From Escherichia coli (GTDB lineage Bacteria; Pseudomonadota; Gammaproteobacteria; Enterobacterales; Enterobacteriaceae), in the NCBI RefSeq assembly GCF_013315695.1, contig NZ_CP054353.1: a stretch of 64,000 bases of DNA; one strand, 5' to 3'. Below the pieces are notes generated by a model. It did no database searches. It had not been told where the DNA came from and saw only the letters and a program-made list of their open reading frames with translations. This document shows positions 56,206-60,394 of this stretch, in pieces. A program made the position numbers and the translations under genes. How positions within the stretch are numbered: the first letter of the stretch is position 1; each line of letters starts with the position of its first letter.

Positions 56206-56298
56206 GGTGAGGTGGCCGAGAGGCTGAAGGCGCTCCCCTGCTAAGGGAGTATGCGGTCAAAAGCTGCATCCGGGGTTCGAATCCCCGCCTCACCGCCA
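56206..56298 (+). tRNA. serV: tRNA-Ser (GCU)
   Basis: 93-nt sequence with long variable arm, anticodon loop cuGCUaa, 3' CCA encoded. Confidence 0.9.
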
Positions 56299-56301
56299 TT
56301 T

Positions 56302-56378
56302 GCATCCGTAGCTCAGCTGGATAGAGTACTCGGCTACGAACCGAGCGGTCGGAGGTTCGAATCCTCCCGGATGCACCA
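56302..56378 (+). tRNA. argV: tRNA-Arg (ACG), copy 1
   Basis: 77 nt gcatccgtagctcagctggatagagtactcggctACGaaccgag...gatgcacca; symbol assignment among the four copies is by K-12 order only. Confidence 0.9.
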
Positions 56379-56440
56379 TCTCTTACTTGATATGGCTTTA
56401 GTAGCGGTATCAATATCAGCAGTAAAATAAATTTCCCGAT

Positions 56441-56517
56441 GCATCCGTAGCTCAGCTGGATAGAGTACTCGGCTACGAACCGAGCGGTCGGAGGTTCGAA
56501 TCCTCCCGGATGCACCA
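56441..56517 (+). tRNA. argY: tRNA-Arg (ACG), copy 2
   Basis: Identical 77-nt tRNA; 139-bp repeat period. Confidence 0.9.
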
Positions 56518-56579
56518 TCTCTTACTTGATATGGCTTTAGTAGCGGTATCAATATCAGCAGTAAAATAAATTTCCCGAT

Positions 56580-56656
56580 GCATCCGTAGCTCAGCTGGAT
56601 AGAGTACTCGGCTACGAACCGAGCGGTCGGAGGTTCGAATCCTCCCGGATGCACCA
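56580..56656 (+). tRNA. argZ: tRNA-Arg (ACG), copy 3
   Basis: Identical 77-nt tRNA; identical 62-bp spacer. Confidence 0.9.
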
Positions 56657-56718
56657 TCTCTTACTTGATATGGCTTTAGTAGCGGTATCAATATCAGCAG
56701 TAAAATAAATTTCCCGAT

Positions 56719-56795
56719 GCATCCGTAGCTCAGCTGGATAGAGTACTCGGCTACGAACCGAGCGGTCGGAGGTTCGAATCCTCCCGGATGCACCA
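56719..56795 (+). tRNA. argQ: tRNA-Arg (ACG), copy 4
   Basis: Identical 77-nt tRNA. Confidence 0.9.
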
Positions 56796-58090: not shown

Positions 58091-59674
<1,584 letters not shown>

Positions 59675-59682
59675 CAGAAAAG

Positions 59683-59755
59683 AAAAAGGCCACTCGTGAG
59701 TGGCCAAAATTTCATCTCTGAATTCAGGGATGATGATAACAAATGCGCGTCTTTC
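59683..59755 (-). ncRNA. micA: MicA (SraD) Hfq-dependent sRNA
   Basis: Minus strand reads gaaagacgcgcatttgttatcatcatccctgaattcagagatgaaattttggccactcacgagtggccttttt, the MicA sequence as I recall it, between gshA and luxS. Confidence 0.85.
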
Positions 59756-59823
59756 ATATACTCAGACTCGCCTGGGAAGAAAGAGTTCAGAAAATTTTTA
59801 AAAAAATTACCGGAGGTGGCTAA

Positions 59824-60339
59824 ATGCCGTTGTTAGATAGCTTCACAGTCGATCATACCCGGATGGAAGCGCCTGCAGTTCGGGTGGCGAAAACAATGAA
59901 CACCCCGCATGGCGACGCAATCACCGTGTTCGATCTGCGCTTCTGCGTGCCGAACAAAGAAGTGATGCCAGAAAGAGGGATCCATACCCTGGAGCACCTG
60001 TTTGCTGGTTTTATGCGTAACCATCTTAACGGTAATGGCGTAGAGATTATCGATATCTCGCCAATGGGCTGCCGCACCGGTTTTTATATGAGTCTGATTG
60101 GTACGCCAGATGAGCAGCGTGTCGCTGATGCCTGGAAAGCGGCAATGGAAGACGTGCTGAAAGTGCAGGATCAGAATCAGATCCCGGAACTGAACGTCTA
60201 CCAGTGTGGCACTTACCAGATGCACTCGTTGCAGGAAGCGCAGGATATTGCGCGTAACATTCTGGAACGTGACGTGCGCATCAACAGCAACGAAGAACTG
60301 GCGCTGCCGAAAGAGAAGTTGCAGGAACTGCACATCTAG
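59824..60339 (+). CDS. luxS: S-ribosylhomocysteine lyase (AI-2 synthase)
   Basis: 171 aa starting [14 protein letters not shown]; HTLEH metal motif. Confidence 0.95.
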
Positions 60340-60370: not shown

Positions 60371-60394
60371 AAGCCAGTTCAAATGAACTGGCTT
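60371..60394. terminator. Bidirectional hairpin terminator between luxS and emrB
   Basis: aagccagttca-aa-tgaactggctt perfect 11-bp stem between convergent genes, with an A-run upstream. Confidence 0.65.

Follow-up and report, generated by a model that had tools for sequence, protein, structure and literature searches.

What is encoded on the minus strand between gshA and luxS of this Escherichia coli chromosome, and which of the transcripts that meet there end at the hairpin next to the gshA stop codon? The stretch of DNA analyzed (the window, 64,000 nucleotides) carries in its ORF list gshA and luxS on the plus strand and, beyond luxS, emrB and emrA on the minus strand. Between gshA and luxS, on the strand opposite to both, lies a segment in which a reading made from the sequence alone had placed an intact gene for the small regulatory RNA (sRNA) MicA, antisense to the gshA-luxS intergenic region. 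The order gshA/micA/luxS/emrB/emrA is that of K-12, with the orientation reversed.

The Rfam/covariance-model scan that had been proposed as a check was run, and the outcome that was to count against the claim, no MicA match, did not occur. In a cmscan of the whole window, the MicA model RF00078 matches positions 59684-59755 of the minus strand with 83.9 bits against a gathering score of 41 (E = 1.4e-11), and with Rfam 15 the match is untruncated, covering model positions 1-75 of 75. Window positions 59600-59900, which hold the gene, its promoter and flanks, are 100% identical to K-12 MG1655 over 301 columns, with 0 gaps or mismatches. The K-12 MG1655 ncRNA micA (b4442, "small regulatory RNA MicA") occupies 2814802-2814874 (73 nt), which corresponds exactly to window 59683-59755. 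The full-length match, the identity to K-12, the strand and the neighbors all bear out the claim, and we regard it as nearly certain that 59683-59755 on the minus strand is the intact micA gene of the E. coli chromosome, encoding the envelope-stress repressor of outer membrane proteins (OMPs). No result of the analysis speaks against this identification. The label "not novel" was also right: MicA at this locus is already known and is not a discovery. Known since 2001, this sRNA belongs to the best-characterized of those that depend on Hfq. Features of the locus are given in Table 1; the distance from the gshA stop codon is 13 nt to the hairpin stem and 8 nt to the 3' end annotated for MicA.

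Table 1. Features of the micA locus; positions are those of the window, and MicA nucleotides are counted from +1.
Feature	Position	Strand	Description	Basis
gshA (glutamate-cysteine ligase)	58118..59674	+	TTG start, 518 aa; convergent with micA	ORF list and RefSeq annotation of identical DNA
Rho-independent terminator of micA	59680..59705	-	7-bp GC-rich stem with 4-nt loop (59688-59705), then UUUUUCUU	Terminator scan
micA (MicA/SraD sRNA)	59683..59755	-	73 nt as in K-12 b4442; +1 is G at 59755	Rfam RF00078 and K-12 identity
A/U-rich linker	59706..59712	-	AAAUUUU	Unpaired in single-sequence and consensus folds
Stem-loop 1, MicA nt 24-43	59713..59732	-	CAUC-C-CUG / CAG-A-GAUG	Single-sequence fold, Rfam consensus, RNAalifold
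5' target-pairing (seed) region, MicA nt 1-24	59732..59755	-		Unpaired in consensus fold and Rfam structure
Sigma-E-type promoter of micA	59762..59788	-	-35 GAACT 59784-59788, N17, -10 TCTGA 59762-59766, N6, +1 G 59755	Motif match
A/T-rich element upstream of -35	59789..59810	-	Abuts luxS Shine-Dalgarno region on the other strand	
luxS (S-ribosylhomocysteine lyase)	59824..60339	+	171 aa; divergent from micA	ORF list and annotation

The PGAP-annotated E. coli records examined carry no feature at the micA position and the K-12 MG1655 record annotates one, in agreement with the claim that the gene is invisible to ORF-based annotation. The sequence-only reading located a non-coding gene of 73 nt with single-base accuracy where PGAP annotation of E. 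coli shows nothing; the finding is correct but ordinary, and as a discovery it matters little. One 48-aa ORF does cover the gene (59611-59757, minus strand), and its ATG ends on the +1 base of MicA, so that it is untranslatable from MicA; it is taken as a mechanical ORF.

For comparison with relatives, one genome per species was scanned for the exact 23-nt 5' pattern of MicA, which gave at least 120 loci in Escherichia, Citrobacter, Enterobacter, Klebsiella, Serratia, Yersinia, Pantoea, Erwinia, Dickeya, Pectobacterium, Rahnella, Edwardsiella, Hafnia and other genera. These listed loci are a sample and not a census, and conservation in the 5' region is by construction, since the loci were chosen by an exact 23-nt match there. 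Among the matches listed, all 109 informative loci have micA between luxS on its upstream side and gshA on its downstream side, with these two genes on the opposite strand; 11 of the at least 120 loci end too near micA to show gene order.

The minimum free energy (MFE) fold of MicA has -20.5 kcal/mol (z = -2.98), and 0 of 200 dinucleotide shuffles fold as well. RNAalifold, applied to 86 distinct orthologous RNA sequences from the matches listed together with the window's own (87 rows), gives exactly the Rfam two-hairpin structure. In this alignment of listed matches, standard pairs fill 98.5% of the cells, as against 28-55% with the partners slid by 1-3 columns, and four pairs show changes on both sides, such as G-C to A-U atop stem-loop 1; covariation is modest because the MicA family is very conserved. 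Stem-loop 1 itself has three of its seven pairs changed on both sides and 98.2% of cells paired, and the terminator stem has six of seven pairs that never vary and an innermost seventh that is A-U, U-A or G-C (87 distinct sequences, among the matches listed). The U's of the linker that adjoin the hairpin are invariant in the same 87-row alignment of listed matches; footprinting has identified the inter-stem linker as the Hfq-binding site (PMC4618604). The single-sequence MFE fold retains both stem-loops and a seed region that is largely single-stranded; the weak 4-bp helix that it adds there (MicA nt 5-8/15-18; 3 bp in the centroid) has no counterpart in the consensus fold or the Rfam structure. 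Extra AUC/CAUC repeat units occur at about MicA nt 21-30 in several genera, ATCATCATCATCCCT at some loci and ATCATCCATCTCATCCCT at one (L106), among the matches listed as L003-L122; repeat-number variation in the target-pairing region has already been noted in a review of MicA (PMC4618604).

Transcription of micA is strictly sigma-E-dependent, as shown in E. coli, and Udekwu & Wagner described for it a sigma-E consensus together with an "AT-rich element upstream of the -35 box" (both PMC1851643). In the window the pattern GAACT-N17-TCTGA-N6-+1 occurs once in 64 kb, where shuffles give an expectation of 0.04. The matches listed provide 110 distinct orthologous upstream regions. Of these, 107 retain the core AAC-N18-TCTnA-N6-+1, and only 45 carry the strict GAACT-N17-TCTGA form, because GAAACT variants of the -35 element and TCTTA variants of the -10 element are common. 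The T/A run of the element at 59789-59810 is conserved at 80-99% per position in the same 110 upstream regions among the matches listed. The -35 and -10 elements of micA lie 36-62 nt upstream of the luxS ATG (59824), and luxS transcripts cross there (PMC2956633), which supports the claim that the micA promoter overlaps the luxS upstream region; the luxS ATG is 68 nt from the MicA +1 here and 67-92 nt from it in most orthologues among the matches listed. A sigma-70 promoter-like site on the plus strand (59733-59762) was set aside: one match is the level found in shuffles, and reporter fusions showed no promoter activity in the luxS-proximal 70 bp (PMC2956633).

At the other end of the gene, K-12 Term-seq places the dominant MicA 3' end at 2814877, abundant and in all three growth conditions (PMC7815308 supplementary file 1). 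This coordinate is window 59680, 8 nt beyond the stem; it exceeds the annotated end of micA by 3 nt, so that mature MicA would be about 76 nt long and end UUUUUCUU, rather than being 73 nt. The 61-mers in the Term-seq table of Adams et al. span 50 nt upstream to 10 nt downstream, though the caption begins "40 bp upstream", and the coordinates were relied on; the conversion from K-12 to window positions was checked on three terminators (MicA, luxS and 2811376) and holds.

The sequence-only reading added, in an aside, that the MicA terminator hairpin doubles as the gshA terminator, and this part is not established. The consensus terminator scan calls the hairpin on the minus strand only. The minus-strand tail of the hairpin is TTTTTCTT and the plus-strand tail AAAATTTC; in the gshA sense the sequence that follows is AAAAUUUC, without a U tract. 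The same asymmetry runs through the orthologues: of the 8 nt in the tail, 6-7 are T in the micA sense and 0-4 in the gshA sense in all 114 orthologues among the matches listed, and the gshA-sense tail begins with AAA in 104. The gshA-sense tail is A-rich because it is the complement of the conserved U-rich linker of MicA.

A true bidirectional intrinsic terminator at 59688-59705, ending both micA and gshA, is nevertheless the alternative that survives best, although we consider it unlikely. In its favor, the gshA stop codon, 13 nt from the stem here, is 8-27 nt from it in all but one measurable orthologous locus among the matches listed, the terminator scan found no other terminator-like site between gshA and luxS, and no gshA-luxS polycistronic message has been reported (PMC2956633). 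Term-seq in K-12 also assigns a "primary" gshA 3' end, the only gshA-sense end at most 50 nt from the stop codon, to 2814861, in LB at OD 0.4 with a score of about 34,600 (PMC7815308 supplementary file 1). That end is within the hairpin, but at window 59696 (plus strand) it is the second base of the loop and not a position past the stem. A different gshA-sense end, 2814914, dominates in LB at OD 2.0, with a score of about 305,900, some nine times higher (PMC7815308 supplementary file 1); this is window 59643 (plus strand), 31 nt inside the gshA ORF. Neither end follows a canonical terminator; processing, cutting by RNase III of a duplex with MicA, or an artefact of library preparation at the palindrome could each have produced them. 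Against termination in both directions stand further the call on the minus strand only, the U-poor gshA-sense tail, and the luxS P1 transcripts, which start inside gshA and read through the micA hairpin (PMC2956633).

The resemblance of this locus to bidirectional intrinsic terminators lies in a single GC-rich hairpin between convergent units (here micA and gshA), flanked on one side by a run rich in A. The micA hairpin differs from them in that it has a U tract in the micA direction only and that the gshA-sense end falls in its loop; it fails the anatomical definition of a bidirectional intrinsic terminator. A literature search returned nothing relevant on a bidirectional terminator in connection with MicA; the sole "terminator" in Udekwu 2010 (PMC2956633) is the plasmid rrnB terminator. 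Thus gshA-sense RNA ends in or near the micA hairpin, and canonical bidirectional intrinsic termination is not established. The hairpin has the anatomy of a one-way terminator, which corrects the aside on gshA.

The trans-acting role of MicA is well documented. Its 5' region pairs with the ompA 5' UTR and with lamB, ompX, phoP and other mRNAs, leading to a translation block and decay; it forms the repressing arm of the envelope stress response, and Hfq is bound at the inter-stem linker and probably also at the U tail (PMC4618604). That MicA is expressed, bound by Hfq and represses OmpA in vivo is known for the identical K-12 sequence (PMC4618604). Since ompA, like the other targets, lies outside the window, K-12 sequence was used to examine the pairing with RNAduplex (MicA nt 1-30 against K-12 ompA -133 to +30). 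MicA nt 7-30 pairs with ompA -45 to -5 at -23.2 kcal/mol, and the contiguous core adjoins the start codon; 20 of 1000 shuffled seeds do as well, so that the advantage is only moderate. The computed pairing is consistent with the published MicA-ompA duplex of 4+12 nt (PMC4618604).

The following course of events is proposed for this locus. On envelope stress, active sigma-E would direct RNA polymerase to start at G 59755 from the GAACT/TCTGA promoter, and transcription would stop at the GC-rich hairpin and U tract at 59680-59705, yielding an RNA of about 73-76 nt. Hfq would occupy the A/U linker and the U tail, and the open 5' end would pair with the ribosome-binding regions of ompA, other OMP mRNAs and phoP. 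This pairing would block translation and promote mRNA decay, thereby reducing the load of unfolded OMPs. In addition, MicA is perfectly complementary to the long luxS 5' UTRs transcribed from the opposite strand, and it has been reported to bring about their processing by RNase III in cis.

This last point raises the alternative that MicA acts mainly as a cis-antisense RNA to the luxS 5' UTR, and possibly to the gshA 3' UTR, with regulation in trans being secondary. MicA is perfectly complementary to any gshA- or luxS-sense RNA that crosses 59680-59755, among them the long luxS 5' UTRs. Transcripts from luxS P1 and P2 cross micA; P1 has a sigma-S-dependent start at -332, and its transcript crosses the whole micA region (PMC2956633, Udekwu). 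By our own coordinate conversion, this start would be the G at window 59492, inside gshA. A further luxS species, R3, has a 5' end that overlaps that of MicA by 14-15 nt, and its abundance depends on MicA and RNase III (PMC2956633); converted in the same way, the R3 5' end would lie near window 59741-59742. The conserved gene order described above (109 of 109 informative loci among the matches listed) is what a cis role predicts, and the gshA-sense 3' end lies inside the MicA-complementary hairpin. On the other hand, the trans targets ompA, phoP, lamB, ompX and others have been validated by compensatory mutations (PMC4618604), the most conserved part of MicA is the 5' seed, which matches ompA, and LuxS protein levels are unchanged by MicA (PMC2956633). 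A primarily cis-acting MicA is distinctly improbable, although the cis and trans roles are not mutually exclusive.

A related and still more doubtful suggestion concerns gshA: its mRNA 3' end might be made not by intrinsic termination but by MicA-dependent processing (RNase III acting on a duplex of the gshA 3' UTR with MicA) or by interference from convergent transcription. The suggestion rests on the hairpin that lacks a U tract, on the conserved convergent geometry and on the ends found in the loop and in the ORF. MicA is most abundant in stationary phase, when the gshA-sense end falls 31 nt inside the ORF. If the suggestion were true, the sigma-E/MicA envelope stress response would also adjust gshA mRNA, and with it glutathione synthesis, in cis.

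Trans-acting MicA from an intact gene remains the preferred reading, and micA is near-invariant within the species: of 5426 complete E. coli genomes, 5423 carry the gene and its promoter, and in 5291 the identity is at least 99%. With this near-invariance, a match to the whole model with double the gathering score, and identity to the functional K-12 gene, promoter included, hardly any credence is left for a decayed remnant or a chance resemblance without a functional gene, in favor of which nothing was found; chance is opposed as well by a fold that beats 200 of 200 shuffles and by a sigma-E-like pattern found once where 0.04 are expected.

Among known systems the gene is closest to K-12 MicA (SraD, PsrA10; RF00078; b4442), with which it shares its sequence (100%), length, strand and luxS-gshA position as well as the sigma-E promoter, the two stem-loops, the U-tailed terminator and the ompA-complementary seed. 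We know of no report that RybB or MicL, two other sigma-E-dependent Hfq sRNAs, stand in a cis-antisense relation to a neighboring gene, unlike MicA. Both resemble MicA in having a sigma-E promoter and a 5' seed and in repressing mRNAs for OMPs or lipoproteins (PMC4618604); their sequences and loci are unrelated to that of MicA, and neither has a match in the window by Rfam, also at E ≤ 0.05. VrrA of Vibrio cholerae, which is about 140 nt long and does not strictly require Hfq (PMC2628432), is a functional analogue and not a member of the MicA family.

Elsewhere in the window, a 10-bp hairpin at 60371-60394, between the convergent luxS and emrB, is terminator-like on both strands. The K-12 Term-seq 3' end of luxS (2814159) corresponds to window 60398, 4 nt past this stem. 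As a shared terminator of convergent genes, the luxS-emrB hairpin is more plausible than the micA hairpin, though its luxS-side tail, AGTTGTAC, is also U-poor.

Rfam agrees, both at the gathering threshold and at E ≤ 0.05, with the claim that MicA is the only trans-acting sRNA recognizable in the window, in that no further sRNA family was found in the 64 kb. At E ≤ 0.05 the whole window gives MicA, five tRNAs, four sub-threshold "Plastid-ycf2" matches and nothing else. The four "Plastid-ycf2 5'UTR" matches (56302-56793, minus strand; 33.4 bits against a GA of 65.7) lie exactly antisense to four tRNA-Arg genes; they almost certainly reflect tRNA-like sequence picked up by the model, or chance, and not a feature. 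The tRNA genes themselves occupy 56206-56795, a tRNA-Ser(GCU) followed by four identical tRNA-Arg(ACG) at a constant period of 139 bp; in K-12 these five tRNA genes are also present, but their start-to-start spacings are 275, 139 and 275 bp. The RNA and promoter of micA are without difference between K-12 and the window, but this nearby tRNA-Arg array is spaced differently, so the host is not K-12 itself.
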